Numbered from the stretch's first letter, positions 1,435 to 58,404 are shown. The stretch is 64,000 nt of DNA from Nitrososphaerota archaeon (GCA_011605725.1 JAAOZP010000003.1:1-64000), one strand, 5' to 3'. Notes: generated by a model from the letters alone, not told the origin. Made by a program: numbers and translations.

Positions 1435-1435
1435 A

Positions 1436-4670: not shown

Positions 4671-4671
4671 C

Positions 4672-7024: not shown

Positions 7025-7654
7025 CTAGAAAGTTTTAGACTCGAAATATTTCTCCAACAGCTTACGGATGCCGCTTCTAGTTATTTCAGAGAAGGTTGAA
7101 GGAACTATTCCAAGCATTTTAGCAAGCTCCCTGGTGCTGACTTTCCTCGGAGTGTCGAAGTAGCCCATTTTCAAGGAAAGCCAGAGAGCATTCTCCTGCT
7201 TCTCGGTTAAAACCCCTTCCCTGTGCTCCTGCCTGGTTAAGCCTAGGACCTTAAGCTTAAAACCGAGAGACTCCAATGTCGATATTATTTGTTTAAAAAC
7301 ATCGTAGCCTGGTGCTATAAACTCGTAGACCATCCGGTACCCTTCAACATGCCTGCCTGAAATAAGGAAGGCTCCTTGGGAAAGCATTGTGTTGCAAACA
7401 CTACACCCGTCTGTTTTAAAGGAGGCAAGTACCGAGCTCTTCGAACCTTTCAAAATCTTAAGGTTCTTCAAAGAGGCCTTTTTAAGCTCGCCGGCTGGAA
7501 ATTGAACCAGGTGTCTCACAGAGCCTTCAGGCAGTCTCCTGACATCGATAAGCCTGCAATCGTTAACGCCGAGCTTAAACATGAGCTGCAAGCCCTTGCA
7601 CTGACTGTTCTCAACCTCAAGAGTCACATGGTACAGTGTTTGTTCAAGAGCCAT
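7025..7654 (-). CDS. Bacterio-opsin-activator-type (HTH_10) regulator
   Basis: C-terminal LTEKQ..AL...GYFDTPRKVSTRELAKMLGI.PST.SE..R. Confidence 0.88.
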   Translation of the reverse strand: MALEQTLYHVTLEVENSQCKGLQLMFKLGVNDCRLIDVRRLPEGSVRHLVQFPAGELKKASLKNLKILKGSKSSVLASFKTDGCSVCNTMLSQGAFLISGRHVEGYRMVYEFIAPGYDVFKQIISTLESLGFKLKVLGLTRQEHREGVLTEKQENALWLSLKMGYFDTPRKVSTRELAKMLGIVPSTFSEITRSGIRKLLEKYFESKTF

Positions 7655-7776
7655 TCAGCCCACCTTCACCAGAATAACTGTTAAAATCGTATTAAAACCT
7701 ATCTGGCGCGGGTAGAAGGTTTCCAAAGGCATTAAGTTTAATCTTTAAATACGCGCGTCGGAAACGTAGGCTGAAA

Positions 7777-8418
7777 ATGCTGAAAACCATCCTCGCAGCC
7801 CAGCAATGCTTAGAATGGATGGAGCAGCTTGCCTATCAATACGGGTATTTAGGGGTGTTTATCTTATCGTTCACAGGAGCCGTATCCATCATCATCCCCA
7901 TACCGTACACTGTCGTAATCTACCTGATGGGCTCCATCATAGATCCTTTCCTGATAGCTGTCTCAGGAGGATTAGGCTCAGCCCTGGGAGAGCTAGTAGG
8001 CTACGTTCTGGGATACTGCGGCAGGAAGCTGATAAGCCAGGAGCATAAGAGGAAGATGGATTACATGCTTAAAATATTCAGCCGTTACGGTGCTGTAACA
8101 ATATTCCTGTTTGCACTCACACCCCTGCCCGACGACCTGCTGATAATTCCGCTCGGCATAATGCGCTACAACCCAGTTAAGATCCTCATACCCTGCGTCC
8201 TGGGTAAAACCCTTATGTGCCTCATACTGGCGCTTGGAGGAAGGTTTTCAATAAGCCTGGTTAAAAGCCTTTTCGGAGGGGAGGGGGGATGGGCTGCAAC
8301 CCTAGCATCCTTCCTGCTCCTAGCTGGAATCATAATAGTGATGATGAAGATAGACTGGGAGGAAGTCTTCTTCAAATACGTGGAGAAGCGGGGGAAAGCA
8401 CAGGGTCAAAATAATTAA
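7777..8418 (+). CDS. DedA/VTT (SNARE-associated) membrane protein
   Basis: YGYLGVF...PIPY...GSALGE.VGY.LG...FALTPLPDD...GK. Confidence 0.88.
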   Translation: MLKTILAAQQCLEWMEQLAYQYGYLGVFILSFTGAVSIIIPIPYTVVIYLMGSIIDPFLIAVSGGLGSALGELVGYVLGYCGRKLISQEHKRKMDYMLKIFSRYGAVTIFLFALTPLPDDLLIIPLGIMRYNPVKILIPCVLGKTLMCLILALGGRFSISLVKSLFGGEGGWAATLASFLLLAGIIIVMMKIDWEEVFFKYVEKRGKAQGQNN

Positions 8419-8445
8419 ATAAGGGCTTGAAGCCACTAGTGTTCA

Positions 8446-9360
8446 ATGGAAAACTTTGAAAAGGAATACTGGCTTGAAGTTGAGCTGCAACACCCTAAAG
8501 GATGGGTGTTGGCGGCGGAATCCGGAGGAATATTAGACGGGTATTTCAGAGTAGACTCGAAAACAGCCGCTAAGCTTGAAGTCAAATGGGAGAAACAGGC
8601 GTCTGAGGGGAAGGCGAGGTCTAAAGTGCAGCCGATGGTTGTGATAAACAGGTTTATCGAAGACTATATGAAGCGGACTGGCGCGCGCTCTAAGATTAAG
8701 GCTGAAGTATACGAGCGTGGAAACGCGAATATCTGTGAGCATAATGCTTATTTCGCAAGATGGCGGGGAATCGGAGACGTAGCTACTCTCTCCTGGGTGT
8801 GTGAAGACGAGAACAAGGTTTTCCTCGTCAACTACTATCTGGAGCCGGGTGAGAAATGGGAGGATGTTGCAGGATGGCTGATCCCCGGGCTCGTATGCCA
8901 TACTTCGGAGAAATTCTGGAGGTACCGGCTTATCGGCGTGGAGTTTAAAATACCTAAGGGCTATGCTCTCCAAACCAGGAGGCTGCTGCTAGGCAGGCCG
9001 GTGGCCGTCTTCAAAGCAGGGGAGAAAACACTGTTGATCCACTGGTCAACCTTCGCCAGAGAAATCCTTGCCAAGTATAAGAGTCTTGTAGAATGGGCTA
9101 AGAAAGAGGCTCCGAAGGAAGTCGGCAGCGTCATGAAAGGGTTAAAGTACGACATGCTTAAGCCAGACGAGAAGACGGGGAAAATGGTTGTGGAGGAAAC
9201 TGGGAGAACATTCTTCGGCGGCAGGACGACTGTTAAAACGTTAAGAATCTGGCATGACTCAGGCTCCAACAGAATATTCTTAACAGGCTACTCAGGTCCC
9301 AGGGATAGCATGACCGACCTTGAGGAGCTTGAGAAAAGCATAGTGTTTAAGCCTGACTAG
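8446..9360 (+). CDS. Hypothetical protein (two repeated alpha/beta domains), co-transcribed with the PqqD gene
   Basis: 304-aa ORF; LEVELQHPKGW and IGVEFKIPKGY look like internal repeats; 10 bp from the next gene. Confidence 0.75.
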   Translation: MENFEKEYWLEVELQHPKGWVLAAESGGILDGYFRVDSKTAAKLEVKWEKQASEGKARSKVQPMVVINRFIEDYMKRTGARSKIKAEVYERGNANICEHNAYFARWRGIGDVATLSWVCEDENKVFLVNYYLEPGEKWEDVAGWLIPGLVCHTSEKFWRYRLIGVEFKIPKGYALQTRRLLLGRPVAVFKAGEKTLLIHWSTFAREILAKYKSLVEWAKKEAPKEVGSVMKGLKYDMLKPDEKTGKMVVEETGRTFFGGRTTVKTLRIWHDSGSNRIFLTGYSGPRDSMTDLEELEKSIVFKPD

Positions 9361-9370
9361 GTGAATAAGA

Positions 9371-9940
9371 ATGCCTCTGTTTGGAAGAAAAAAGAAGGAG
9401 CCTCCAAGGGTTTCGCCGGAGAGGCTTTACAGGAGCATACCTATCGTAAGCCCGGTGGTGAAGCATGAGGAGGATGCTGACGGCATCGTCACAATCCTTA
9501 TTCCCATTCGAACCGGCGACCCTAAGAATCCTGAAAGAACAGCGAGAATAAGGCTTGACGAAATAGGAAGCAAGGTTTGGAAGAAAATAGATGGGAAAAC
9601 ACCGCTTAACGAAATAGTCCAGTGGATGAAGCAGGAATTCATGTTGACGGAGAGAGAGGCAGAGGTCTCGCTGTCAATGTTCATGAAAAGCCTTGTCGAC
9701 AAGAAGCTTGTGGCACTCGCCCTGCCGCCGCCAAAACCAGGAACACCCGAGGTTCAGGAGGAGATTGAAAGAATAAGGTTTGAAATAGAGGAGCTTGAAA
9801 AAGCCTTTAAAAAGAAGAAGGTTGATGAGAAAACATTCAGAGAGCTTAAGGAGAAATACGAGCAGGCGATTAGAGAGCTTAAGGAGAAGGAGGCTGCTGA
9901 AACCAAGCCCCCGGATAAAACACAGGTTAAGCCAAGCTGA
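9371..9940 (+). CDS. PqqD-family (RRE-like) protein with C-terminal coiled coil
   Basis: IRLDEIGSKVWKKIDGKTPLNEIV......F.L...EAEVSL..FMKSL..K.LV; GGTGA SD. Confidence 0.8.
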   Translation: MPLFGRKKKEPPRVSPERLYRSIPIVSPVVKHEEDADGIVTILIPIRTGDPKNPERTARIRLDEIGSKVWKKIDGKTPLNEIVQWMKQEFMLTEREAEVSLSMFMKSLVDKKLVALALPPPKPGTPEVQEEIERIRFEIEELEKAFKKKKVDEKTFRELKEKYEQAIRELKEKEAAETKPPDKTQVKPS

Positions 9941-9988
9941 CGCGCTGCTTATCGAAGCGCTTATTTAGCTTTTCAACATTCCTCTACC

Positions 9989-11005
9989 GTGGTAAGAAGC
10001 CTACGACTATGGAACTTCAGAGGCGTGGAGAAGGGCGAAGTTAGGCTTGCCCCTTTCACAATTATTCTAGGCGGCAACAACTCGGGTAAGACAACTATTC
10101 TCGAAGCCCTGTTCCTCGCGCCAAATCCTTTCCGCAGAGCCCCCTATTCCGGGGTTGACGTTGCCGTCAAGATTCTTCAAGAAACACACAGGGTTTTTGA
10201 AAACACGGGCTACTTCTTCCTTTTCCACAACTATACTTCGAGCGAGGCGAGAATCAAGTGCGACAGCCACGTCATAAGCTTCCTCAGGGATGATGAAACA
10301 ATTTACGTCACTACGAACAAGAGTGACGCTGGCGAATGCTTAATGCTTAAAGGGAAGCCGGCTAATGTTTTAGGAAAACTGTCTTTCACGCTTACCAACA
10401 TAGTCTCCATGTATGTTAACGATAAGGTGACTAAGGAGGATTCTCTGCTTCTCAGCCCAAGCCTTACAAGAATGAGTTACGACTATGTGAGGATAAACTG
10501 GCCTCTCCTCGCCCACAGTAATGTTTGCAGCAGGATCGCTGAAGAACTGTCTCGACTCCCCGGTGGAAAATGCGTCGACATAACCATGGAGCCCTTCTTC
10601 AAAGGAGGAGTATCGATAAACCTCCTTCTTGAAGAAGAGAAGAGGATAAGGCTTAGCGATGCTGGAACAGGGGTTCAGAACTACGTTATAGCGAGAATTC
10701 TTTACGAGTTGAAGAAGCCGGAGATACTGCTCTGGGACGATGTGGATAATGGTCTTGACCCGGCTACGCTTTTAAGCGTTGCACGCTGGTTCTCCAGTCT
10801 CGTGGAAAAAGGCACCCAGGTAATCGTAACCACCCGGAGCCCTGAAGCCGCGAGAAGGATTGCTGAAGCCGCCGGAGGCAGGCCGACAATACTTTTAAGC
10901 ATCCTTAAGGAAGGCAAGCTTGAAACCAGAAGACTGCTGGAGACTGAGCTGGATGATGGAATACTGGAGGCGGAAAAACCGTCGAAAAGCCTGCGTGCCG
11001 CTTAG
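9989..11005 (+). CDS. ABC-type AAA_21/AAA_15 ATPase (orphan)
   Basis: NFRGV, GGNNSGKTTILEAL (Walker A), LSDAGTG signature, LLWDDVD (Walker B-like), IVTTRS. Confidence 0.8.
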   Translation: MVRSLRLWNFRGVEKGEVRLAPFTIILGGNNSGKTTILEALFLAPNPFRRAPYSGVDVAVKILQETHRVFENTGYFFLFHNYTSSEARIKCDSHVISFLRDDETIYVTTNKSDAGECLMLKGKPANVLGKLSFTLTNIVSMYVNDKVTKEDSLLLSPSLTRMSYDYVRINWPLLAHSNVCSRIAEELSRLPGGKCVDITMEPFFKGGVSINLLLEEEKRIRLSDAGTGVQNYVIARILYELKKPEILLWDDVDNGLDPATLLSVARWFSSLVEKGTQVIVTTRSPEAARRIAEAAGGRPTILLSILKEGKLETRRLLETELDDGILEAEKPSKSLRAA

Positions 11006-11230
11006 GCTTGAAACCTCACGACTTAGAATAAGTTTAGACAGGACAGGTTGCTCAAAAATGGGGGATAATTTCTTCCTGCGTTTACTCGGCGGTGAGACTC
11101 TCCACATCATTGAAAAACCATCAGCATACTCTTAAACTTAGTTTGCCAACTCCTCGGATGAAACTAGCGTGCGCTACGGGTCAACCGGTTGGTTTATTTT
11201 AGCGACACGACAGTAAGTCATGATATTTTA

Positions 11231-11286
11231 TTTCATTTTCTACACGATACTTGATACGTTTTTCCCCAGATTAAAAAACTTTAAAA
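11231..11286 (+). promoter_or_regulatory. Conserved operator plus BRE/TATA upstream of the 560-aa glycan enzyme gene
   Basis: TTTCATTTT-N6-GATACTTGATACGTTTTT...AAAAAACTTTAAAA, nearly duplicated at 14343-14400. Confidence 0.65.
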
Positions 11287-11327
11287 GTTGCTCAAAGAGG
11301 GCACTATAACTTTGATGACGAGCTCTT

Positions 11328-13010
11328 ATGAAGCGTCAAGCATTGTCCTTTTTATCACTGATGTTCCTGGCAATAATGATTTCCTATTTCGTTTACTCAT
11401 TGTGGAGGGTTGAGCATATGAAAGAGTCACAGACTTTAATAAGAAGAATCGAATTAATGCCTTCTACTCCTGAACCGTTTGTCATGAAAAACTGGAAGGA
11501 GCTTACTAAAGCATACATCCGTTTCGTCTTCAACTTCAACCTTACCGGTGAGTACTTGCCCTTAATAAGGCTAGATAAATCTGACCCGGACGCTATTTCC
11601 TTCGACCTGCCGTCTTACATCGGCGATTCTAGGATGCGTGAAGGCTCTGGAGAAGCAATTAATTGCGTAGCAGCAGTGTTGAGTGGCACGCTTATCGGTA
11701 TTAACATGAGTAACTATAATGGTTATGACTGGGTTTCAATGTGTAAAAGCTGGTTCAGTAAGGAAGACGGTATATTTCTCAATGCTAAGAGAGGGCAAAG
11801 CGGAGGGTCTTTCTGGTATGACATATATCCAAACATATTGATTTTTTCCCTAGTATACTACTATCCGGAAGCAGCGCCTTCATGGAATTCGACTCTGTAT
11901 AATGCGGCTGAAAGTTTTTACAAGGCTTCCCAAATTATTCGCACACGATACAATGATTCAGATTTTGACTTCACCGCGTTCGATTTCCGCGGAATGATAC
12001 CCGTTAATAACGGAAGATGGGTGGAACCGGATGCAGCGGCAGGAATCGCATGGCTGGAGTACATGGCTTACGTGAAATGGGGCAATCCGCGTTTTCTGGA
12101 TGCTGCGAAGTGGAACATGCAGTTCCTCCAAGAGAGGAAAATTAATCCTTTCTACGAAGTGTTGCTTCCCTTCGGAGCCTATACTGCTGCACGCATGAAT
12201 GCAGAGCTCAGAACAAACTACGATGTGCAAAAGCTTTTGAACTGGTGTTTTGACGGCGAGACCCCGATAGGCCCAAGACCCGGATGGGGTGTTATAGTCG
12301 GCAAGTGGGGTGATTACGATGTCAATGGATTAGTAGGTAGTCTTACAGACGGCGGCGGTTATGCTTTTGCAATGAATACCTTCGACATGGCTCTGCCACT
12401 GGTACCCCTAGTACGTTACAACACTAGTTTCGCCAAGGATATAGGCAAGTGGCTGCTTAATGCTGCGAACAATGCTCGATTGTTTTATCCGGATTCACTC
12501 CCGGAAAGCCATCAATCCTCCTCATCATGGAGATATAGCAACGTTGTTGCGTATGAAGGATTGCGATACATATGGAATGGGAAGAGTCCCTACGCGATGG
12601 GTGACCCCATTCTCCATGGCTGGGGCGCTACTGACCTGGGTCTTTACGGGTCTTCCCATGTGGGAGTGTTCGGCGGAATCATTAGTCTTACTGATGATGA
12701 GAAAATACTTCAAATAGACCTCCTTAAAACAGATATGTATCACGGTCCTGCTTACCCAACATACCTTTATTATAATCCTTATGATGTTGAGAAAAGTGTA
12801 AAGATAGAAGTTGGTTCTGAGCCGGTGGACATTTACTGCGCTGTTACACATAGGTTTTTAGGAAGGAGTGTAACAGGCACTGGGGTGATTACGCTTCCGC
12901 CGGACTCGGCTGCAGTGATTATACTAGTGCCGTCTGGGGGTCAGGTTGAATATTCTAACGGAAGAATGCTTGTGAACGGGATCATCGTAGACTATGAATG
13001 TGAAAGTTAA
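11328..13010 (+). CDS. Membrane-anchored putative glycan-active (alpha/alpha)-barrel enzyme, uncharacterised
   Basis: N-terminal TM helix; aromatic/acidic motifs GSFWYDIYPN, EPDAAAGIAW, NPFYEVLLP, YAFAMN, YEG; carbohydrate gene context. Confidence 0.6.
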   Translation: MKRQALSFLSLMFLAIMISYFVYSLWRVEHMKESQTLIRRIELMPSTPEPFVMKNWKELTKAYIRFVFNFNLTGEYLPLIRLDKSDPDAISFDLPSYIGDSRMREGSGEAINCVAAVLSGTLIGINMSNYNGYDWVSMCKSWFSKEDGIFLNAKRGQSGGSFWYDIYPNILIFSLVYYYPEAAPSWNSTLYNAAESFYKASQIIRTRYNDSDFDFTAFDFRGMIPVNNGRWVEPDAAAGIAWLEYMAYVKWGNPRFLDAAKWNMQFLQERKINPFYEVLLPFGAYTAARMNAELRTNYDVQKLLNWCFDGETPIGPRPGWGVIVGKWGDYDVNGLVGSLTDGGGYAFAMNTFDMALPLVPLVRYNTSFAKDIGKWLLNAANNARLFYPDSLPESHQSSSSWRYSNVVAYEGLRYIWNGKSPYAMGDPILHGWGATDLGLYGSSHVGVFGGIISLTDDEKILQIDLLKTDMYHGPAYPTYLYYNPYDVEKSVKIEVGSEPVDIYCAVTHRFLGRSVTGTGVITLPPDSAAVIILVPSGGQVEYSNGRMLVNGIIVDYECES

Positions 13011-13058
13011 AGTGCTGAAAGCTTTATATTGCTGATAAAAAGAATCATATAGCCAAGA

Positions 13059-14366
13059 TTGCCAAAACAGATCAGGTTCGACGAGAAAGATAAAGTTATT
13101 CTCTCGATCCTGTATGAAGACGCTCGCCTTAAAAACAGGCAGATCGCTTTAAAAACCAATCTTAGCCAAGCCACTGTCGCCAGAAGAATCAATAAAATGA
13201 AAAAAATGCAGATTATAAAAAGGGTTGTTCCCATAATTGATTATAAAAAAATAGGCAAGACTTCTGCATGCTTCATCCTGCTCGATTTAAAGAACTGCGA
13301 TGCCGACAGCTTGATGAAATACTTGGAAAATGCTGAGGAAGTAATATGTTTGTACCTTCTTGAAGGAGAAAAAATGCTTTTAAAAACTGTTTTTGAAAAC
13401 AGATCGGCTTTAAATAATTTTGTCGACAAGATTAAAAGGTTTTTCGGAAGCAACATCGACAGTCTTTACGAGGTCAGATCCATCCTGATTGAGGAGAAAT
13501 GTCCCTTCCAAGGCGTTTCAGAGTTGAGGGCTGAAACTCATTATGAGGATCAGTCGAAAATAACGCTAAGCAACAGTAGGATTAGGCTCACTGTAGATTT
13601 AGGCAAGGGTGGAATAATAGACGAAATAGTTCCCACGAACATGAGTAGCATAAACCTGGCTTTTCCCGAGCTTGGCCTGCTTTTCGACACTTTTATAGAA
13701 ACCCAGTTTTGGCTGGACGAGCTTCAAATAACTAAGCCCTACTACAATATAAAAAGGGATGAGAACTGGATGGAGCTAAACTTCAGAAAATCAGTTAAAG
13801 CGATTTCTGCGTTAAGAGGTTTAGAGATAACTAAGACAATTCGTTTAGAAAAAAACTTGAACGAGGCTAAGATCAAGTATTTACTGGTCAATAATGGTGG
13901 AGCTGAAAAAACATTGACGCTTTGGGTTTGCAACTATCTTGACGCCTCACTATTCTCAGAGCTGATAATCCCGTCGGCTGACGGCGTTAAAAAAATAAAG
14001 GTTGTGAACGATTCGAGCAGAGGCTTTTTCACAGTTTCGGAGAAAGAGCTGAATGAGCTGGTGGGGAAATACTGGCGGGATGAATGGGGCTTATTCGTCC
14101 ACCCCGAGAAGCCTGTAGATAGAGCTGGCTATTTCAGTAAGCTTTTAAAAATCATCCTAATGTTTCACTTCGACCCGAAGCAAGTGTGGGTTGTTAAGAG
14201 GTTTTGGGGAGAGAAATACGTTAGTCTAGAACTACTGTTCAACCCAGCCTCCATGCGGCCGGGGGAGACTGCTCAATACGAATTCAACATCCGCTTGTTA
14301 TCAAGCAGAAAAGACTATTCTGATGAGTTTCACGGTAATTTGTTTCATTTTTCCCCGGATATTTGA
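13059..14366 (+). CDS. Lrp/AsnC regulator fused to a galactose-mutarotase-like beta-sandwich domain
   Basis: DEKDKVILSILYEDAR...IA....LSQATVARRINKM....II.....IDYKKIG; C-terminal ITLSNSRIRLTVDLGKGGII...LEITKTIRL...Y.L.N...SLEL...PGE. Confidence 0.75.
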   Translation: MPKQIRFDEKDKVILSILYEDARLKNRQIALKTNLSQATVARRINKMKKMQIIKRVVPIIDYKKIGKTSACFILLDLKNCDADSLMKYLENAEEVICLYLLEGEKMLLKTVFENRSALNNFVDKIKRFFGSNIDSLYEVRSILIEEKCPFQGVSELRAETHYEDQSKITLSNSRIRLTVDLGKGGIIDEIVPTNMSSINLAFPELGLLFDTFIETQFWLDELQITKPYYNIKRDENWMELNFRKSVKAISALRGLEITKTIRLEKNLNEAKIKYLLVNNGGAEKTLTLWVCNYLDASLFSELIIPSADGVKKIKVVNDSSRGFFTVSEKELNELVGKYWRDEWGLFVHPEKPVDRAGYFSKLLKIILMFHFDPKQVWVVKRFWGEKYVSLELLFNPASMRPGETAQYEFNIRLLSSRKDYSDEFHGNLFHFSPDI

Positions 14367-14400
14367 CACATTTTTTCCTTAATTGAAAAAACTTAAAAAA
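14343..14400 (+). promoter_or_regulatory. Second copy of the operator plus BRE/TATA, upstream of the transporter operon
   Basis: TTTCATTTT-N6-GATATTTGACACATTTTT...AAAAAACTTAAAAA; overlaps the end of the regulator gene. Confidence 0.65.
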
Positions 14401-14427
14401 ACATCAAAAGTATTAACAACGGTAAAA

Positions 14428-16458
14428 ATGAGCCAGGAAGCTGGCGTACAAACGTATGAGGAAGGGGGGGCAAAAACTGTTCTAGCAAAATTCCCGTTAC
14501 GTGCCTTCATAATAGGCCTTATACTGGCAGTGATTTCGACCATGCTCTGGGTTGCGCATACTCGTGCCAACTTGACCTACAATATACCTTGGGCAGGCTT
14601 AGCTGCAGGAGGAATAGACTTCACACTGTTCATAGGATACGGTTTCGCTTCCCTAATAGTTCTACCAATCATCCTGTCTAAAATCGGCGTAAAACTTACT
14701 CCTACGGAATACGCTATCATATACATAATGGTTCTAATCGGATGGACTGGGCCTGCTCTTTTCTGGATGTGGGGCGTCCAAATATGGACTGTCTGGACAT
14801 GGAGCGGAGGAGTCGTGGCAAAAGAACTTGCATTAACCGGGAAAATACCTGCCTACTGGTATGTTTTGAACGAGAAACAGGCAGAATGGTTCTTCTCAGG
14901 CGGGCCTTTCATATTGAGCGAAATCTCTAGTCCAATACTCTTCTGGAGCGTAATGGCCATATGTGAAGGACTCATGACGTTCTTCCTAGCTCTGATCTTC
15001 AGAAGGAAATGGGTTGAAACCGAAAGCCTACCTTTCCCATTCGCCTCCTCAGCAGTAATGCTGGTAAACATGACTGAAGAAGCTCAAGACAAGCCCGGTA
15101 TTAAAATGGCGAGAGAAAGGCTACTCTGGATCGCGTTCCTAATCGCAGTGCTGGCTTACGGGTTCAACATAATACATGCTTTCATTCCAACAATACCGCG
15201 GATTCCAATAGATGAAATCGATCTGAATCCTTGGGGTGGGGGGAACATTGGAGTCAACCTGGATTTAACACCGACGTTTAAAGGCGCGATGATCGTTCTA
15301 AACTTCAATCCTCTGCTTATAGCAGCATTATTCCTCCTGCCGCTCGACATCCTGTTAACCACGTGGGTAGCAATGGTTGTGTTTCAATGGATATGGCCTG
15401 CCGTCGGGATCTCTACAGGCTTGTTCCCAGATATCTCGGCGCAAGGCGCTTGGAGCGTATGGTGGGCACTTGGAAACGAATGGTCCGGAGCAATCTGGTA
15501 TTTACTTGGATATGGCTTTATACAGGGAGTGGCAATATGGGTGATAATATCGAGTCGAAAATACTTTTCCAGCCTAATCTCCTCAGCCATCAAGGGAGAC
15601 GCTGAATCCCGCATCGGCCTCTTCGGCTTCATAGGCATAACCGTGATATGGCTACTCATCATGTTTGCGCAAGGCGCTAATCCATTGGTTATAACACTTT
15701 CAGTAGTCTATTTCCTCCTCGTCTACTTGGGAATGATGAGGTACCGTACGGAGTCTTCCCCCGCCGGCGGCGGCTTCTGGTGGTGGAACTGGACTAACGG
15801 AGTCTTCTCAAAAATAGGTAACTGGCCGATAGGATCGCCTGAAGCATATGTAACAATGAACCTAACGTCTCCAATGGGTGCAGGCCCAGGCAATATACAG
15901 TATGCACTATTATCAACAGATATTGTGCATATTTCATCACAGTTCAAGATGGATGTCAAACACCTGTGTTTAATCGTTGTCTTAACCACAGTGATCACCG
16001 TGATTTTCGGAGGCATATTCTATGCCTGGTGGGGCTACGCTGGTTTAAGAGGCCTCGGATGGCTTAACGACCAGCAAACCTTCGCGATAGACCTTGGGTA
16101 TGCGATTTATAAGAGTGGAACATCGTTCAAACTAACTGTCTGGGAGCCAACATACATTCCTTACATTGCTGGAGTCGTCTTGGCGGTGATACTCATGTGG
16201 CTTAAAGCGACTTTCGCAACAATCCCGTTCAACCCGTTAGGTTTAATAATGGGCTGCATGTACATGTGGCCATGGGTTTTCACGTCAGTGCTGATAGCTT
16301 GGCTGGCAAAGTACATAATCTTCAAAACAGGAGGAACCCCATTATACCAGAGGCTTCTCCCCGGTGCAATAGGTTTCATAGGTGGTTATTGGTTTGTGAA
16401 ACTAGTCATGTGGTTCATAGTCCGCCTCTTCATAGGATTACAGCTACCGCCCCCATAG
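14428..16458 (+). CDS. Polytopic membrane protein, DUF6785/OPT-superfamily-like transporter
   Basis: Many TM helices; LT..EYAIIY, IFRRKWVETESLPFP, PFNPLG, KYIIFKTGG..LYQR..P.AIG. Start moved to ATG 14428 because the ORF-track start (14383) lies inside the promoter. Confidence 0.75.
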   Translation: MSQEAGVQTYEEGGAKTVLAKFPLRAFIIGLILAVISTMLWVAHTRANLTYNIPWAGLAAGGIDFTLFIGYGFASLIVLPIILSKIGVKLTPTEYAIIYIMVLIGWTGPALFWMWGVQIWTVWTWSGGVVAKELALTGKIPAYWYVLNEKQAEWFFSGGPFILSEISSPILFWSVMAICEGLMTFFLALIFRRKWVETESLPFPFASSAVMLVNMTEEAQDKPGIKMARERLLWIAFLIAVLAYGFNIIHAFIPTIPRIPIDEIDLNPWGGGNIGVNLDLTPTFKGAMIVLNFNPLLIAALFLLPLDILLTTWVAMVVFQWIWPAVGISTGLFPDISAQGAWSVWWALGNEWSGAIWYLLGYGFIQGVAIWVIISSRKYFSSLISSAIKGDAESRIGLFGFIGITVIWLLIMFAQGANPLVITLSVVYFLLVYLGMMRYRTESSPAGGGFWWWNWTNGVFSKIGNWPIGSPEAYVTMNLTSPMGAGPGNIQYALLSTDIVHISSQFKMDVKHLCLIVVLTTVITVIFGGIFYAWWGYAGLRGLGWLNDQQTFAIDLGYAIYKSGTSFKLTVWEPTYIPYIAGVVLAVILMWLKATFATIPFNPLGLIMGCMYMWPWVFTSVLIAWLAKYIIFKTGGTPLYQRLLPGAIGFIGGYWFVKLVMWFIVRLFIGLQLPPP

Positions 16459-50698: not shown

Positions 50699-51889
50699 AT
50701 GTCTTCAGAGGAGAACCCGCTTCTCACTCTTCCAAGACCCATAGTGGACGCGCTTTTCTCAAGCGCTGAGAAAGAGGCTGGGAACGTGAAGGAAAGAATC
50801 CTAATGCTTGAGAAGATGGCTAGAAAGGTTTCAGAAGGCTTCAGGTTTAACAGGATTGCTGGAAGCAGAAAAGGCTGTATTGCTGTTGCAGACGGCTCCA
50901 TGTCTGTCGCGCCCAGCAACCGTATAGGCTCGCTGTTCGCAATATACTCGGCTGGATACATGGTTTTCGACGACGGTAGGCTTATGGATGAGAACTATTA
51001 CGCCGGATCCCTAAGCTGGCCCTACGGGGGAGCCAGAGATTTCAAGACGCTGCTCAAGCTCCTGATGGCTTACGCTGAGAGGAAAGCCGCGTTAGAAGCC
51101 TACTGGAAGCATAATCCTGACCTAATCCTGCTGGACGGCCCGTTCTTCTTCTTCAGGGGATACTGCAGGTATATTCATGCTGTCCAGGTTGAAACGCCTG
51201 AGCTTAAAACAGGCCTAGACCTCGTAAGGGAGGTTAGGGACAAGACCCTGACGCTGATGGAGACGGGTAGAGCAGTATGCGTAATAAGGCGGAGCGGCAT
51301 CAGAGCTGTAGACGGCTGGCTGATCTACAATCAGGGCGAGGAAGCCTGCCTGAGGATTAACGATAAGCATCTTCTCACAATGGTCATGCCGCCGATGACA
51401 ACATGGTCGTACAGGGACCTATGCGAGGACCCGCTTCTATACGCTACCTTCTACCGGTTCTACAGGAGGTGGAGGCAAGCCGGAAGGAGGCCTGAAGAAC
51501 TTGACAAGGAGAAAATCCTTTCACAGTGCCTGGAGGACTGGAGGAGAAAGTTCCTGAGCGATTTAGACATTGAGTTTGAAAAAGTGCCGAGGTTAGAGAG
51601 GCATTACGTAAGGTATACGGGTGCGGCGCCGCCTTTCGAGATAGAGACACTAGCAAACATGAAGCCGGAGGGCTTCGCCGAGTACTTCGTCGAATTCCAC
51701 AATCCCGCTACCGGGCTCCCGTACCCGATAGACATGGTTGACGAGGCTGTTACACTGCCCAGGGGCTCGACAACAGCCTTCACCGAGGAGGTTGAGGCAA
51801 GGCTCATCAAAGACCAGGACATAGAGAATAAGACGGCAATATCAGACTACTTCACGGTCCTAAACCCACAGAAGAAAGAATACATATAG
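50699..51889 (+). CDS. nurA: NurA-family nuclease
   Basis: AVADGS, M..AE..AA, LILLDGP, GLPYPIDMVDE.V; follows HerA. Confidence 0.85.
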   Translation: MSSEENPLLTLPRPIVDALFSSAEKEAGNVKERILMLEKMARKVSEGFRFNRIAGSRKGCIAVADGSMSVAPSNRIGSLFAIYSAGYMVFDDGRLMDENYYAGSLSWPYGGARDFKTLLKLLMAYAERKAALEAYWKHNPDLILLDGPFFFFRGYCRYIHAVQVETPELKTGLDLVREVRDKTLTLMETGRAVCVIRRSGIRAVDGWLIYNQGEEACLRINDKHLLTMVMPPMTTWSYRDLCEDPLLYATFYRFYRRWRQAGRRPEELDKEKILSQCLEDWRRKFLSDLDIEFEKVPRLERHYVRYTGAAPPFEIETLANMKPEGFAEYFVEFHNPATGLPYPIDMVDEAVTLPRGSTTAFTEEVEARLIKDQDIENKTAISDYFTVLNPQKKEYI

Positions 51890-52043: not shown

Positions 52044-52718
52044 ATGAGATATGCGGAACTAGTTAAGGGCATTATAAATTTTGAGAGTTCTTTCTGGTTC
52101 GGTGAATATGTATATTTTAAGGCTCTTGAAAATCTAGAGAACGTTAGGGCTGACTTAAGTAAGTTAGAAACAAAGGAGCATGTAGAAAGAATAATTAAGA
52201 TGTTTCTCATTCAATGGGGTAGAATGGGAAGAACTGTGGATAGGAGAGATTTAAATTGGGAACAACTTACTAAACAATTACGTAGCTCTAAAGAAGCTTT
52301 CCAAAAACTACAGGGTAAAAGTATACTAGATATTAATCTTGACGATGAGGAAGTAAGAGATGCTATTAAAAGAACTTATGAGGCAGCAAGCATTAAATAC
52401 ATTGGGGCAACTGCAATCTCAAAGATTTTACATCTGCTAAATCCTGAAATCTACGTAATGTGGGATGAAGATATTAGGATGAAATATAAGGTTGCAAAAA
52501 GTGTGAAAGGTTATCTAGATTTTCTAAAGCAAATGAAGGTGGAAGTAAAAGAGGCATTAGGAGAAGGGGTTAAAGAGAAAGGATGTAGCGAAAAGGAAAT
52601 CGTGGAAGAAATTTGTAGAGAGCTTCCAAGTAAAAAGCTTGGCCAAGAATATAGTAGAAAAACTTTGGCTAAACTTATTGATGAATACAACTGGTGGTTG
52701 GTCCATTACGGATTTTGA
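52044..52718 (+). CDS. HhH-like N-glycosylase-related protein
   Basis: FL.QWG.M, IGATAISKILHLLNPE.YVMWD, TLAKLIDEYNW; GGTGA SD; AT-rich. Confidence 0.6.
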   Translation: MRYAELVKGIINFESSFWFGEYVYFKALENLENVRADLSKLETKEHVERIIKMFLIQWGRMGRTVDRRDLNWEQLTKQLRSSKEAFQKLQGKSILDINLDDEEVRDAIKRTYEAASIKYIGATAISKILHLLNPEIYVMWDEDIRMKYKVAKSVKGYLDFLKQMKVEVKEALGEGVKEKGCSEKEIVEEICRELPSKKLGQEYSRKTLAKLIDEYNWWLVHYGF

Positions 52719-52825: not shown

Positions 52826-53755
52826 CTAGGTTCCTACTGCTAATTTTTCTTGGCCTCCGCTAAGCCTCCGTATAATGTTCTCTAAGTCCTCGGGCTTGAT
52901 GGCTTCAATCTTCTCCTTTGTTTCTTCAATGGCGGAAACCCAGCGTTGAGAACCACTAGTCTTCCTAACAGCTACTATCATATAATAGTAGAATCTATAG
53001 GGTGATTTTACCTTAATAGGTATCGTAACCTCTCTATGCTCTCTGATCTTCTCTAAGTAAAGCTCGAATAGAGCATCTTCATTCTCGCATGCTTTCCACT
53101 CATCTGTTCCAAAGAAACGTTGCAGCGTTTCTATTTCCGCAGAAGTCTTATTTTCTTTTAGAGCACTTCTAGAAACCCCGGTAGATTGATAGTTTATAAT
53201 AAGATCCCCGGTAAGATTGAAGAGATGTTGCAGAGTTTCCCACTCTATTTCTAATCCCTCAGGATCTACAAAAGCAAGAAAATGAACGGAGCCAGCTTCT
53301 AAACGAGCTTTAGTCATGGCTTTAAATTCTGGGCCGTTGACATCTTCTTTCCTCACTTTTGCATTCGGAAGTAAATGTCTTAATGCTTCTGCATATTTTT
53401 CTTTCTTCTCAAACAGAATCAGCTCGTCGAATTTCTTCCTTGGAACCCGGTCTGTGATGAGAGGCGAGCCAAACACGATGAGATTGTTCAAATCGCTTAT
53501 TCTATCTAAGCCTGGCCCAGCGAAAAGGTCGATATAATACGCCTTATCAAAATGGGCTTTAATTATGGCCGTATATATGTCGGCGTAATATGCTAGAATG
53601 GCGAGCTTTAAAATAGCCCAGCTTTTACATGAATAAGCCTCCTTAGTTTTTTGAAATAATTGACTGGCCTCCTGACTCTGACCCCTTAAGGTTTCTATTC
53701 TGCGAACCCACCATTCGGAAGGTGTAATTTTTCTTCTCCGACCAGACGGATTCAT
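52826..53755 (-). CDS. tcmP: Three-Cys-motif partner protein (SAM-dependent methyltransferase fold)
   Basis: W..LKL.IL.YY, YIDLFAGPG, GSPL, E, DVN, FVDPEG....W.TL, DL.I. Confidence 0.85.
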   Translation of the reverse strand: MNPSGRRRKITPSEWWVRRIETLRGQSQEASQLFQKTKEAYSCKSWAILKLAILAYYADIYTAIIKAHFDKAYYIDLFAGPGLDRISDLNNLIVFGSPLITDRVPRKKFDELILFEKKEKYAEALRHLLPNAKVRKEDVNGPEFKAMTKARLEAGSVHFLAFVDPEGLEIEWETLQHLFNLTGDLIINYQSTGVSRSALKENKTSAEIETLQRFFGTDEWKACENEDALFELYLEKIREHREVTIPIKVKSPYRFYYYMIVAVRKTSGSQRWVSAIEETKEKIEAIKPEDLENIIRRLSGGQEKLAVGT

Positions 53756-53761
53756 TTGGAT

Positions 53762-54871
53762 TCACTTAGAGTAGCAATTACAAGTGCCTCGCCTATATGG
53801 GATGCCTAGTTTTTCAAGCATCGATACCGTCTCCTTACAAATACTTACTTTATCATCACCGTAGCCAAAAGCAGAGAGCTTATCCAGCATATACTCATAT
53901 ATCCTTCTCCTTAGTTCAGACGGTAATTTCTTTCCCCAACCAGTATCTTCTTTAAAGAACTTAGCCCAGCCCATATCTACCCCTGCTTTTTTAGCGTAGT
54001 ATATTGTTTTCTTTAACCCCCTTGGCGTCCCAAGTATTATCTTAGCAGGTTCCACCTCAGACATGATTCTGTATAAAATATCTTCATAATGCGTTTCCCA
54101 GTCTTCTATAGGGAATATTGGGTCGATCCTTATCCTCACCTCATACCCTGTTTCGTAAACCATTTTCGCAGCCTGTATCCTTTGTTCCGGCGGAGCTGCT
54201 TTTTTCTCCCAGATTTTTGCAACCTCTACGGCGTTAATACTCCAAGCGCATACAACCTGTTTCTTAACATGATCAGGCTTATTTAGCAAAAATTTAATAC
54301 TGTTTGCCCCCGCTTTACTTAGCAGAACGATCCTGTGCTTATGCTGCTCTCCAAACTTGTCAACTATTTCACTCATTAAGGGAGGGTTCATCAGGGAATC
54401 AGATAATTCGCCGCTGTTGAATAAAGCAGGCTTGCCACCGTTAAAATGAGGATCGTTAAATGCCTCGTCCAACGCATTGAATACGTAATGTAGTTTCACG
54501 TAGCTGGGTTTCATGTTCCCTTTCTTTGTTCCTCTCAAATAGCAATAAGAGCAATCGAAAGGACAGCCGAAAGCCCATCTCAACTCCCAGAAGGGGCCGC
54601 ATGCTATGTCTGGAGGAGTTTTCGCGAATAATTTCACTATGCCTTGACCGTATTCGGTTCGAAACGGCTTACGAACAGGCTCTTTCACTACGGCTTCAGG
54701 ATGAGTGATCGACGCAATAATCTTCGGGGGGAAGAAATCAGGAATCCTCCTGCTCGACTTAGCGATTATTTCCGCCTCTTTCTTCCTTATTGTTCGCCAA
54801 GCCTTTAAAGCTGCTTCTCTATGTTTCTCCTTCTCTGTAAGCATCTTCCCCCTTCCTTTACTGTCTGCCAC
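53762..54871 (-). CDS. Spore-photoproduct-lyase-like radical SAM protein
   Basis: GCPFDCSYCYL, FNSGELSDSL, LLSK, WSIN, E...P..RI.AA, RIDPI; 6 bp from tcmP. Confidence 0.85.
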   Translation of the reverse strand: MADSKGRGKMLTEKEKHREAALKAWRTIRKKEAEIIAKSSRRIPDFFPPKIIASITHPEAVVKEPVRKPFRTEYGQGIVKLFAKTPPDIACGPFWELRWAFGCPFDCSYCYLRGTKKGNMKPSYVKLHYVFNALDEAFNDPHFNGGKPALFNSGELSDSLMNPPLMSEIVDKFGEQHKHRIVLLSKAGANSIKFLLNKPDHVKKQVVCAWSINAVEVAKIWEKKAAPPEQRIQAAKMVYETGYEVRIRIDPIFPIEDWETHYEDILYRIMSEVEPAKIILGTPRGLKKTIYYAKKAGVDMGWAKFFKEDTGWGKKLPSELRRRIYEYMLDKLSAFGYGDDKVSICKETVSMLEKLGIPYRRGTCNCYSK

Positions 54872-54956
54872 TGTCCTTATAAGAACCTACACGGGAAGTT
54901 TTTAATCTTTGATTTTTCATTGGAACTTTTAAATAGCATGAGTTGGTGACTTATGT

Positions 54957-55946
54957 GTGGCTGAACTAGTTGAAAAGAGGGAATCGCCAGAAAAATCCTT
55001 ATCCATCGGGATATACGTGGGTTTCAAGGCTGTTAAGACAGGCAACTTATGTTATGATACCCGGGTTTTCGCTCCTCCTGAAGTAAGGGTGGATAGCTAT
55101 AGAATATCGTATCCGCTCATTAAACCGTCGAAGCTGACATCAAAAAGCCGTGGAGGCGTCGGTAAGGAGCTGTCGAACGGCTGGGCTTTGAACTTCGCAG
55201 TAGGCTGCACCCATGGATGCATCTTCTGTTACGTCGACTCGATTCATAAGAGATTTGGAAGACACAGGTATGGGGCGGAGGTGGATGAGAAATGGGGGAA
55301 CTATTTTCTGATTCCGAATAATATTGAGGAGGCGGTTGAAAAAACTCCTTGGCACAGGTGGAGGAACCGAGAGGTTCTTTTAAGCTCCACGCATGACCCC
55401 TATCTTCCTCAATTAGCGCCTGTTACGAGAAGAATTCTGGAAAGAGCACTGCCTGCTGGAGTGAAATTCTGCATTCAAACAAGGTCTCCGCTAGTAATGA
55501 AGGACTTCGACTTGTTAGCGAAATATGCGAAAAGCATAAGACTACAGGTGTCGATAGCTACGATGAACGAGGATTTCTCCAGACTGATTGAGCCCAGAGT
55601 ATCTCCTCCGATGGCTAGGCTAAGCGTGATAAGAAATGCTAAGGAAGTTGGATTAGAAACCGGAGTCATTTTAGCGCCGATATTCCCACCGACAAGAATG
55701 AGGCCAAATGTAGGAGAGGACCTGGATGAAATCATGAGGCAACTCGCCTTGATAAAACCAGACCACATATACGGCGAATCCCTGCATATAAGAGGAGGAA
55801 ACATAAGGCTCATAAAACAAATCCTTGGAGAAGATTTCAACGATTTAAAGCCATTCGAATCTGAAATAAGGCGCTTGTTCAAATCAAAACTAAAGGAGTA
55901 CGGTTTGAAGGGAACATGGTGGCTAGAACACAGATATTTCAAATAG
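54957..55946 (+). CDS. Radical SAM protein (SPL/Rv2578c-like)
   Basis: LNFAVGCTHGCIFCY, SSTHDPY, TRRILE, QTRSPLV..D, SIAT, EPRVSPP..RL, APIFP. Confidence 0.88.
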   Translation: MAELVEKRESPEKSLSIGIYVGFKAVKTGNLCYDTRVFAPPEVRVDSYRISYPLIKPSKLTSKSRGGVGKELSNGWALNFAVGCTHGCIFCYVDSIHKRFGRHRYGAEVDEKWGNYFLIPNNIEEAVEKTPWHRWRNREVLLSSTHDPYLPQLAPVTRRILERALPAGVKFCIQTRSPLVMKDFDLLAKYAKSIRLQVSIATMNEDFSRLIEPRVSPPMARLSVIRNAKEVGLETGVILAPIFPPTRMRPNVGEDLDEIMRQLALIKPDHIYGESLHIRGGNIRLIKQILGEDFNDLKPFESEIRRLFKSKLKEYGLKGTWWLEHRYFK

Positions 55947-56142
55947 TTAACAGCTAGATCTCCTTTGTTTCTGGATTTTTCCTCAAATTCAAAAAGTACA
56001 ATAATGATAAATTAACTTAACCGGGAAATGAGTTCTTCTCTAGGTGTAGCGTGTGCTCTGAGGATGGTTATTGCATGCAACTCATTATTGTGCAGAGATA
56101 TTAACGAATTCTGACACTAATTCCTCTATAACATTCGGCGCG

Positions 56143-56595
56143 CTAGTGTAGTCCTAGCTTACTTTCAAAGCTCCTAAATTCCTTCTTTTTCTCATAAAGA
56201 GCGTTAATCTCTTCCAAAGTTATTATTTTAAGCTCATCAATTATTTCTTGAATCACTCCAGAAGCAATGTTATAAGCAACACTAGTTTGATCTCTTGTTG
56301 TTTCTAAAATTGGTTTTGCATTCCACATATCCCTGGCATGCTTAAGTTTTGTTAAAGCTTCTTCAAGGTTCCCGCGAATATGCACTTCAAAGACAATGTA
56401 AGGATCTGCTCTTTGAAGCCTTTTCCATGCAACGTCAATCTTGTAGCCATCAAGCTCTATTTCTTTTATGCTAATCTTTTCTTGAAGTAACCCTATCTGG
56501 TGAATTAAGTCTTTAACTGTTTCATGATCCAGTTCCGTTTTATATGGTATCTTTTTATTCCTTGCTTCATAATTCTCTTCAATTCTCTTGAACAT
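56143..56595 (-). CDS. PD-(D/E)xK nuclease domain, probably 5'-truncated
   Basis: H..VK..I..IG...E......IDVAW......VFEVH..GN...AL.KL; palindromes at both ends (56138-56145, 56599-56611). Confidence 0.7.
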   Translation of the reverse strand: MFKRIEENYEARNKKIPYKTELDHETVKDLIHQIGLLQEKISIKEIELDGYKIDVAWKRLQRADPYIVFEVHIRGNLEEALTKLKHARDMWNAKPILETTRDQTSVAYNIASGVIQEIIDELKIITLEEINALYEKKKEFRSFESKLGLH

Positions 56596-56667
56596 TTCAG
56601 CGCGCGCGCTACTCCGTTGCTTTAAATAAATGGCTACTTAAAATATTTAAATGTCGGCTAAAGATAT

Positions 56668-58404
56668 ATGAGTATTATGAGCATCCAAGATCAATTGGGT
56701 GAACCCGAGAGTAAGTCTTTTAACATCAGGAAAATTCTGAACCTTATTAATGAACATGAGTGGAGCCTTTATTTACCTTCTTTTCAAAGATCTTTTCTTT
56801 GGGATGAAGAAGATATTAAAAAGTTTCTTGAATCAATGCTAAACGGGTATCCTGCTGGATCTATTCTTTTATGGCATCCTAGCAACAAAGGTATTGATCC
56901 ATTTGCCAGAAAGTTTATAGATACTCGTCCAGAGCCTGATCACTCTGAAGTTTATTATATTCTGGACGGTCAACAAAGATTAACGGCACTCATGCTTCTC
57001 GCAAATGGCTGGAAGCTGGAAAGAGGCAGAAAAACAATTTCAAGATCTCCGATATCCTACAATCCATCTAAGCAAGGAGGAGAACTTATTAAAGGAATGA
57101 AAAGAGGAATCGATCTCTCTAGAGGGATTAAAGACCGATTAGGTGATGTTAAGGAAAGTCTCAGGCTAAAAAGGGAACTAGGGAGTAATTATAATGATTT
57201 CATACGCGCGATAGATAAAATTCTTAATTACGAAATGCCTATTTATGTTGTTAAAACTTTTAACGAAACACCAAATATTCTTGGGAAAATGGCAAATATC
57301 TTTATAATGGTTAATAGAGCTGGACAGAGAATTACCAACGTAGAATTACTCTTATCTTATGCTGCTGGAGTTTTTGATCAAGAAATCGTTAATAATCTAA
57401 GAAATTATTATGATGAGATTCAAGAAAAATATGGTGAAGAAATCAGTATACAACCTTTCCTAAGATTTGCATTTTCTACTCCTCTAGTTGGGCTTAAGCA
57501 ACAGGACATAGAAAATGTAGAAAGATTCAAGGCTTCTGTGAATAAAATAAAAGGGCAATTAACTCTTGATCGTAAAAAGATGTTGAATGAGAAGATTCAA
57601 AATGCATCTAAGTCGTTTGGCATAGCCTTAGACCTCGTTTTAGAGATTTTCGGGAAGGCAGCCATCGAGCTCTTACCATCGCACATATCGTTAATTCCCA
57701 TAGCTTGCTATCTTCATATAAATGACATAAGTAGCGTAAAGGAGCTTAATGAAAATGAGAAAGCATTGATTAAAAAATGGCTTTTGTTGGTGAATTTTAA
57801 TGGATATTATTCGACAAGACCCTCTGTTAAGCTTCAGAAAGATATTGAGACTTTAGATCAATCTGGAAGATTTCCATTTCGAGAGTTTCTTGAAAACATT
57901 AAAGGAAATAAGCCCTCGGCAATCCGGATATCCAAGGATAGCATTGTGGAAGGCTGTAACAAAGACATTCTAAGGAAGCCGAATCTCTCGTATCTTTTCC
58001 TACTTTATGTAGCACTAGTAGATAATGAGGCAAACGATTTGACTGGAAGATTAATAAGGAATCTTAATTTTGAAGAACTTGCTAGGCATCATATATTTCC
58101 AAGAGATAAACTCAAAAAAGAATTCAATATTCCGGAGGAGATATCTGAAGAAGATTATCCTATAAAGGGCATAAATGGGCTCGGAAATATCACTTTAGTA
58201 CATACAGATGCAAATAGCGAAATATCTGACGAAGAACCGAAAGAGTATTTTAATAGGTATCGGCGCGAAGACCTTACTAAGCATTTTATTCCCATTAATG
58301 ACGATAAGCTATGGGATCTTAAAAAGTTTGATGATTTTGTTGAAAAAAGAATAGAGAAGATTTATGACTTCCTTAAAGAACGATATCAGGACATAATTGA
58401 ATAA
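56668..58404 (+). CDS. gmrSD: GmrSD-family (DUF262 + DUF1524/HNH) modification-dependent endonuclease
   Basis: LPSFQRSFLW, GYPAGSILLW, LDGQQRLT, F..VN..G; C-term HHIFP, N.LGN.TL....N. Confidence 0.9.
   Translation: MSIMSIQDQLGEPESKSFNIRKILNLINEHEWSLYLPSFQRSFLWDEEDIKKFLESMLNGYPAGSILLWHPSNKGIDPFARKFIDTRPEPDHSEVYYILDGQQRLTALMLLANGWKLERGRKTISRSPISYNPSKQGGELIKGMKRGIDLSRGIKDRLGDVKESLRLKRELGSNYNDFIRAIDKILNYEMPIYVVKTFNETPNILGKMANIFIMVNRAGQRITNVELLLSYAAGVFDQEIVNNLRNYYDEIQEKYGEEISIQPFLRFAFSTPLVGLKQQDIENVERFKASVNKIKGQLTLDRKKMLNEKIQNASKSFGIALDLVLEIFGKAAIELLPSHISLIPIACYLHINDISSVKELNENEKALIKKWLLLVNFNGYYSTRPSVKLQKDIETLDQSGRFPFREFLENIKGNKPSAIRISKDSIVEGCNKDILRKPNLSYLFLLYVALVDNEANDLTGRLIRNLNFEELARHHIFPRDKLKKEFNIPEEISEEDYPIKGINGLGNITLVHTDANSEISDEEPKEYFNRYRREDLTKHFIPINDDKLWDLKKFDDFVEKRIEKIYDFLKERYQDIIE

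Follow-up and report, generated by a model that had tools for sequence, protein, structure and literature searches.

Candidate defence systems in which the protein TcmP is paired with a DUF5131 protein are listed in PADLOC as PDC-M41 (short TcmP) and PDC-M30 (long TcmP). The PDC systems are candidates from a guilt-by-embedding screen and are mostly unvalidated (PMC12988326). Here, we analyzed a tcmP gene of the same family that lies together with two genes for radical S-adenosylmethionine (SAM) enzymes, rS1 and rS2, on a 64,000-nucleotide (nt) stretch of DNA from a Nitrososphaerota archaeon (GCA_011605725.1 JAAOZP010000003.1:1-64000), hereafter called the window. A preceding reading of this DNA without database searches (the sequence-only reading) had proposed a DNA hypermodification system. 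As in the TcmP-DUF5131 pair, TcmP tightly adjoins a Cys-motif iron-sulfur (Fe-S) enzyme of the same megacluster, and the genes are mobile and patchy, occurring in prophages and islands. In contrast to that pair, the window has two partners, neither of which is DUF5131 and both of which carry the canonical CX3CX2C motif. We propose, with a probability of roughly 45%, that the trio is a single mobile enzyme module from a large, still uncharacterised class, which consists of TcmP and radical SAM enzymes of the branch of spore photoproduct lyase (SPL) and DUF5131, and which would modify DNA bases in virus-host conflict.

SPL repairs the spore photoproduct and, to our knowledge, SPL and gp53 of Pseudomonas phage M6 are the only radical SAM enzymes known to act on DNA. 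SPL (SplB; PDB 4FHC; TIGR04070) is the best match of rS1 in both structure and sequence, and the CX3CX2C motif and both Tyr residues of CHYCYL are common to the two proteins. In contrast to SPL, rS1 has Glu for Cys140, four extra invariant Cys residues, an N-terminal basic helix, a TcmP neighbour and an archaeal host. M6 gp53, an SPL-like isomerase of the radical SAM type that takes part in thymidine hypermodification, remodels a DNA base in a viral anti-restriction pathway (PMC8989533). Its motif, CTVGCAFC, resembles CTHGCIFC of rS2, a likeness read from the motif. The gp53 pathway differs from the trio in that it includes a 5-hydroxymethyldeoxyuridine (5-hmdU) kinase, aGPT-Pplase and a pyridoxal phosphate (PLP) enzyme, none of which is present here, and contains no TcmP.

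RlmJ, the 23S rRNA m6A2030 methyltransferase of E. coli (DUF519/YhiR family), is a stand-alone housekeeping enzyme. RlmJ and TcmP share YxDxhAGxG, GSPLIA and an Asp-Pro after beta4, whereas the identity of TcmP to RlmJ is only about 16%, its motif IV lacks the aromatic residue, and its gene is accessory and linked to radical SAM genes. For rS2, the best NCBIfam matches are bacterial COG1533 proteins (PA0069, Rv2578c and 'radical SAM mobile pair B'), which are annotated as 'DNA repair photolyase' and are uncharacterised. SplB-like radical SAM genes of COG1533 are SOS-regulated in several bacteria (PMC8565304), and Rv2578c shows a LexA chromatin immunoprecipitation (ChIP) peak and RecA-dependent induction (PMC3381160). 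In contrast to these bacterial proteins, rS2 falls into an archaeal/viral clade, with scores far below the cut-offs of 360-430 bits.

TcmP and its two radical SAM partners

Three open reading frames (ORFs), tcmP, rS1 and rS2, were read at 52826-55946 of the window, at the same coordinates as in the sequence-only reading. The features of the locus are as follows.

52826-53755, minus strand: tcmP, 309 residues (aa); partner protein of predicted RlmJ fold that bears SAM motifs, short PDC-M41A type
53762-54871, minus strand: rS1, 369 aa; radical SAM enzyme of predicted SPL fold with a basic N-terminal helix and seven invariant Cys
54872-54956, no strand: divergent intergenic region with two TATA-like boxes, as read from the sequence
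54877-54882, for rS1-tcmP: TTATAA, TATA-like box, putative promoter element
54927-54935, for rS2: TTTTAAATA, TATA-like box with its centre 26 nt before the rS2 start, putative promoter element
54957-55946, plus strand: rS2, 329 aa; COG1533-type radical SAM enzyme with the motif CTHGCIFC

The rS1 gene lies upstream of tcmP on the same strand, and the gap between them is 6 nt (TGA ATCCAA ATG). The coupling of tcmP to an SPL-like radical SAM gene at 6 bp, which had been claimed from the sequence alone, was borne out by this gap and by the matches of TcmP to TIGR04474 (89.2 bits, or 89.8 bits when the whole genome was searched, with a cut-off of 53) and of rS1 to PF20903, the SPL family (49.5 bits against a cut-off of 27). 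TcmP is a member of TIGR04474 by this score, has no Pfam match, and matches PDC-M41A of PADLOC at 4e-19. PDC-M41B was not found, as neither rS1 nor rS2 matches PDC-M41B or PF07505, and PADLOC holds no model for either protein. The adjoining Cys-motif radical-SAM-like partner that goes with the TcmP family is present, and belongs to a family other than DUF5131.

The AF2 model of TcmP (predicted local distance difference test score of 89.5) was compared with the PDB by Foldseek, and the 11 best matches were all E. coli RlmJ, with an E value of about 1e-7 and a TM score of 0.45-0.5. The TcmP family profile also matches RlmJ by sequence, with YxDxfAGxG and GSPLIA aligned. Across 23 TcmP homologues, D76, G80 and G82 of motif I, G96-S97, the acidic residue ending beta2 (E116), and D164-P165 after beta4 are kept, with D164-P165 invariant or nearly so. 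Motif I, the GSP motif and the acidic residue at the end of beta2 are those of a class I methyltransferase fold and, since the motif residues are kept, TcmP fits a working SAM site. These results show that TcmP is a protein of predicted RlmJ fold, which retains SAM-binding and motif-IV-like residues.

Long TcmPs carry an added 'GMT-like' winged helix-turn-helix (wHTH) domain. A search started from P0001 for fused TcmP forms of more than 542 aa found none, which is weak evidence. A 502-aa TcmP relative, P0358, carries a Pol-beta-like nucleotidyltransferase region at its N terminus (DNA_pol_B_thumb, 27.4 bits), a hint that the TcmP family works on nucleic acid. Complex prediction for rS1 and TcmP returned a score of 0.00, which carries no weight either way.

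The cluster motif of rS1 is the canonical CX3CX2C (CPFDCSYC). In Foldseek searches, rS1 matched SPL (4FHC) at 5.5e-12 with TM scores of 0.55-0.59, the next fold following at 6e-6; weaker matches included RlmN and, at an E value of about 3e-4, viperin-like enzymes. Both Tyr residues of the radical relay in SPL (CHYCYL) are present in rS1 (CSYCYL). Cys140, the hydrogen donor of SPL (wild-type 4fhc, G. thermodenitrificans), aligns with Glu155 of rS1, so that the catalytic Cys is absent, and rS1 scores 62.8 bits against the SPL equivalog TIGR04070, which has a cut-off of 400 bits. Across 47 distinct members of the rS1 family, the CX3CX2C motif, Glu155, D158, C91, C345, C364 and C366 are invariant. 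The replacement of Cys140 by an invariant Glu, the four extra invariant Cys and the low equivalog score led us to reject the reading of rS1 as a true SPL. This outcome, together with the archaeal host, agrees with the sequence-only reading, which had expected something other than spore photoproduct repair. The four extra Cys may form a second Fe-S cluster or a metal site.

The basic N-terminal segment of rS1 (AALKAWRTIRKK), which had been noticed in the sequence-only reading, is real: it is conserved, with A20, A24, W25 and I28 invariant in 18 homologues. The rS1 family has two forms, a long form with a basic N-terminal helix of 37 residues and a short form without it, and archaeal homologues of rS1 number in the hundreds, at 53-60% identity.

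rS2 belongs to the radical SAM superfamily by its match to PF04055 (68.8 bits against a gathering cut-off of 29.5) and its CX3CX2C motif, CTHGCIFC. The best NCBIfam matches were PA0069 (90 bits against 360), mobile pair B (85.5 against 410) and Rv2578c (80 against 430); membership of the PA0069 or Rv2578c family is ruled out by scores this far below the cut-offs. ORF301 of Acidianus two-tailed virus (ATV), annotated as 'radical SAM protein' (5031-5936 of NC_007409.1, our locus L059), shares 55% identity with rS2. The clade of rS2 is archaeal/viral, and its genes are typically convergent with TcmP. The identity between rS1 and rS2 is 21% over 194 residues, a remote likeness only, and the rS2 and DUF5131 profiles cross-match weakly.

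The divergent gap between rS1 and rS2 is 85 bp if GTG 54871 is the start of rS1, and 112 bp if the start is ATG 54844. The latter is likelier to be the true start, because it is preceded by a Shine-Dalgarno-like GGAAGGGGGAAG and lies 35 nt from the TTATAA box. The claim of a second, divergent SPL-like radical SAM gene 85 bp away therefore holds for the divergent radical SAM gene, whereas 'SPL-like' applies only loosely to a protein of the COG1533 type, and the distance applies only to the GTG start. The head-to-head layout of rS1 and rS2 was seen again in L025, L063-L068 and L070. The intergenic regions of eight trio loci were aligned, and no convincingly conserved operator was found in them.

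Partner families and trio architecture

For rS1, 31 genome, 6 assembly and 3 viral loci were sampled, and their ORFs were searched with purpose-built profiles. TcmP directly adjoins the rS1 homologue in practically every sampled locus that has flanking sequence, mostly in convergent and otherwise in co-directional orientation; overall, this holds for nearly all of about 45 loci with rS1 relatives. For rS2, the 80 metagenome loci sampled included 55 distinct ones flanked by 1 kb or more, and adjacency was taken as a TcmP within 400 bp. On this basis, TcmP adjoins the rS2 homologue in 45 of the 55 (32 convergent, 10 co-directional and 3 upstream), and most loci of the rS2 family hold the rS2-TcmP pair on its own. 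In a sample of 301 genomes of the phylum, 20 have TcmP, whose neighbour is of the rS1 type in 6, DUF5131 in 7 (8 pairs, with two in G250), and of the rS2 type in 4 (G076, G236, G087 and G222). The association of TcmP with radical SAM genes, found in dozens of independent loci, is far beyond chance.

SPL and DUF5131 belong to the same radical SAM megacluster, number 5 of RadicalSAM.org (PMC9477430). In the survey, gene order and family profiles show that three related radical SAM families, namely DUF5131, rS2 (COG1533 type) and rS1 (predicted SPL fold, seven Cys), serve interchangeably as partners of TcmP. In a quick tree of TcmP, the labels for partner type were interleaved and clustered no better than shuffled labels, which hints at partner swapping. 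The sequence-only reading had taken this TcmP to be unusual for lacking DUF5131. No DUF5131 (PF07505) match above the cut-off was found in the genome (the best, on another contig, scored 22 bits against a cut-off of 28.9), and to that extent the observation was correct. The premise of oddness was misleading, because the rS1 and rS2 types are regular partners of TcmP and are related to DUF5131.

In 22 of 23 non-redundant loci with long rS1, the gene is adjoined by a second radical SAM gene of megacluster 5. Its product is a short rS1 paralogue at 12 loci, DUF5131 at 7 and rS2 at 3. Because long rS1 is almost always accompanied in this way, TcmP with two radical SAM enzymes is an architecture that recurs, and the window holds its rS1-rS2 version. 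Further trios of rS1, rS2 and TcmP were found in L023, L063-L066 and L070, with differing gene orders and with TcmP on either side; L067 duplicates the rS2 of L066, and L068 is an rS1/rS2 pair at a contig end. Conservation of the trio, on which the sequence-only reading had depended, is thus supported by the neighbourhood survey, in which the trio is both recurrent and mobile. Two TcmPs accompany two radical SAM genes in L009 and L031.

Short rS1 pairs alone with TcmP, and a ParB_N/helix-turn-helix (HTH) gene stands before short rS1 and TcmP in 7 loci. A four-gene variant is seen in L027-L031, L036 and L049 (e.g., L028:7024-9841), with the ParB_N/HTH gene, short rS1 and TcmP followed by a gene for a protein of 240-300 aa; this protein has weak DUF483 and Zn-ribbon matches, and is also encoded after DUF5131 in L021, L022 and L037. 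One Nitrososphaerales metagenome-assembled genome (CBDAOC01) holds three module copies (L009, L010 and L034), and in L034 an rS1 homologue without an intact ORF (43% identity by tblastn) adjoins an intact TcmP and DUF5131.

Mobility, viral copies and surroundings

The window and L025, a locus of the same genus, align over 52831-55952 of the window at 93.8% identity over 3126 nt, and their flanks are unrelated. The comparison of the two loci shows that the three genes move together, as a cassette of 3.1 kb. The module is accessory: within the class, 2 of 26 genomes carry it, and in the phylum sample 11 of 301. A search for repeats bounding the cassette gave just one, a direct repeat of 14 nt without mismatch (52912 and 55959), at about chance level in 12 kb; no integrase or tRNA search was made. 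A 57-nt stretch at 51832-51888 of the window, in the 3' end of NurA, matches intergenic DNA of L025 at 91% identity, lies about 1 kb from the cassette in both loci, and is the only other DNA that they have in common.

L025, L063 and L064 are relatives with 91-96% identity to the window, and each has a second TcmP that is convergent with rS2 (L025:5436-6339, L063:7063-8071 and L064:7065-7968). In all three, this gene is broken at one and the same position into two ORFs, for which there are two explanations, a fixed pseudogene and a recoding site. Downstream of rS2 in the window (55947-56700), no similarity to a second TcmP was detected by profile or tblastn; where the relatives have the second TcmP, the window starts an AT-rich block with a 150-aa ORF and GmrSD.

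These observations raise the question of whether the trio is one unit. Two independent pairs, rS1-TcmP and rS2-TcmP', may have come to lie side by side, with the second TcmP lost in the window, in which case the layout would be a juxtaposition; this concerns the architecture only and is compatible with any function. Such an origin would account for the split second TcmP that is convergent with rS2 in L025, L063 and L064 and absent in the window, for the rS2-TcmP pairs that stand alone in most loci, and for the two TcmPs with two radical SAM genes in L009 and L031. However, the second radical SAM gene is present in 22 of 23 long-rS1 loci, most of which have one TcmP, and L065-L067, L070 and L023 combine rS1 and rS2 with a single TcmP on either side. 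In addition, the window TcmP clusters with rS2-partnered TcmPs (SH-aLRT support of 95, quick tree), and the three genes have stayed together (94% DNA identity) as the second TcmP decays. We therefore regard two juxtaposed pairs as possible but not probable, and prefer to read the trio as one module.

Related modules were also found in viruses. An archaeal virus contig of 32 kb from IMG/VR (L055, region 1273-15100; CheckV completeness of 89%) carries short rS1, long rS1 and TcmP together with an HK97-type capsid gene, a cement protein gene and two N6_N4 DNA methyltransferase genes; the module lies between the methyltransferase genes and the capsid/cement genes, a few kb from the former. In the lysogeny region of Gordonia temperate phages, TcmP stands directly after the immunity repressor, between integrase and repressor, and is convergent with a DUF5131 gene whose product has the motif CX6CX2C.

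The genome of the window is a 2.2-Mb archaeal assembly, 93% complete, with one TcmP and one SPL-family gene. Upstream of the module are ParE and PIN toxins, an N6_N4 methyltransferase, HerA and NurA, and downstream are GmrSD, DUF499 and a DUF1156 methyltransferase. The position between nucleases and methyltransferases given in the sequence-only reading was thus confirmed, and the surroundings are, by their predicted gene content, a defence island. The ORFs flanking the cassette (52044-52718, plus strand, 224 aa; 56143-56595, minus strand, 150 aa) have no Pfam, NCBIfam or PADLOC match. GC content is 36% in the block at 56-58 kb, where the 150-aa ORF and GmrSD lie, compared to 44-52% around it. 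EVE domains are readers of modified bases. The L025 cassette lies near an EVE-domain protein and a Cas4/PD-(D/E)XK nuclease (L025:2532-2864 and L025:4342-5103), and its context is of the defence type too.

Possible functions of the module

In the favoured reading, the module would act on DNA. TcmP would bind DNA and present a flipped-out base, which it would perhaps also methylate, and the radical SAM enzymes would use the 5'-deoxyadenosyl radical to abstract hydrogen from the base or from its substituent. The abstraction would install or remodel a modification, as M6 gp53 does on thymine derivatives, and a second Fe-S cluster may be bound by the four extra Cys of rS1. The resulting mark in the island would be a self-mark or a shield against restriction in virus-host conflict. 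The sequence-only reading, in which the modified base would serve self/non-self discrimination, is thus supported only in part. A DNA substrate is plausible because SPL and M6 gp53 both act on DNA, on thymine derivatives (PMC8989533). It is favoured because ParB_N/HTH genes occur as partners, long TcmPs carry the wHTH domain, virus copies lie beside DNA methyltransferases, and the context is an island.

A more specific form of the DNA base-modifying module would be a three-enzyme radical SAM hypermodification system of archaea and viruses, in which TcmP selects and methylates or presents the base, and rS2 (or DUF5131 or short rS1) and the seven-Cys rS1, possibly with a second Fe-S cluster, act in sequence. 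The product would be a C- or S-linked modification new to DNA, serving as a self-mark or an anti-restriction coat. In this full form, the proposal is doubtful.

Several points weigh against DNA base modification by the module. The literature search found no paper on TcmP function, its mentions being a gene table and a prophage inventory, and we know of no experiment on any TcmP module and of no modified nucleoside. RlmJ, the nearest solved fold of TcmP, acts on rRNA, not DNA. In TcmP, motif IV is DPxG (DPEG in the window and DPFG in long forms), with Gly as the fourth residue and not the aromatic residue of (D/N)PP(Y/F), and methyl transfer by TcmP is uncertain because this usual aromatic residue, which stacks on the target base, is missing. 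The radical SAM enzymes can apparently work alone, since ATV carries the rS2 homologue and no TcmP, and since rS1-like genes without a detected TcmP are present in three genomes. Some loci, such as L003, sit among metabolic rather than defence genes. No nuclease is consistently linked to the module, and a restriction-like logic is therefore not evident. Finally, because of the split second TcmP beside rS2 in L025, L063 and L064, the trio may derive from two adjacent pairs.

A further point of this kind is that DNA-damage processing is the main rival, and a serious one, because the bacterial COG1533 relatives are SOS-regulated (PMC8565304), with the LexA peak and RecA-dependent induction of Rv2578c as an example (PMC3381160). 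The module would then reverse a lesion by radical chemistry as SPL does, with TcmP as a lesion-recognising base-flipper, and would be a repair cassette spread by mobile elements or viruses. SPL is by far the closest solved structure to rS1, the Tyr pair of the radical relay is kept, and repair genes are commonly virus-borne. In contrast, the hydrogen donor Cys140 of SPL is replaced by an invariant Glu in rS1, the host is not a spore former, and the distribution is sparse (11 of 301 genomes). In addition, the module lies in a defence island, beside viral DNA methyltransferases and in a prophage immunity region, TcmP has an intact SAM-dependent methyltransferase site without an obvious repair role, and SOS control is typical of prophage and mobile-element genes as well. 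Overall, damage processing seems rather unlikely to be the function.

The fold of TcmP also raises the possibility that the substrate is RNA. The module would in that case alter rRNA or tRNA, for example as a mobile ribosome-protecting mark like that of Cfr or Erm. The closest solved fold of TcmP is a 23S rRNA m6A methyltransferase, many radical SAM enzymes modify RNA, with RlmN among the weaker fold matches of rS1, and rRNA modifiers of the resistance type are likewise mobile and patchy. However, the nearest radical SAM relatives of known function, SPL and M6 gp53, act on DNA; the ParB_N/HTH and wHTH partners and the viral position beside DNA methyltransferases point to DNA; and none of about 130 loci showed a link to ribosomal or tRNA genes. 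These comparisons make an RNA substrate quite improbable. A small molecule or protein as the product, such as an antiviral nucleotide like those of viperins, is very improbable: the defence-island site, the known radical SAM defence enzymes that act on free nucleotides, the distant viperin-like fold matches and the lack of a linked nuclease partner would fit it, whereas the viperin likeness is remote (E value of about 3e-4, compared to 5e-12 for SPL), DNA-binding partners recur, and the presence in viruses and prophages fits self-modification better.

The pairing of TcmP with a partner is of a named but uncharacterised kind. As far as we could find, four points are new: TcmP has three partner families that are interchangeable, a second radical SAM gene is near-obligate beside long rS1, the rS1 family has a seven-Cys signature, and copies occur in viruses. 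Because rS1 and rS2 have no PADLOC model, current defence finders overlook these archaeal loci, and the survey explains what PDC-M41 and PDC-M30 share with them. TcmP modules form a very large family, with 13,504 cluster representatives at 50% identity. The chemistry of the module is promising, and the window offers a compact gene set of 3.1 kb for the discovery of either new chemistry on DNA bases or a novel radical-based repair reaction.

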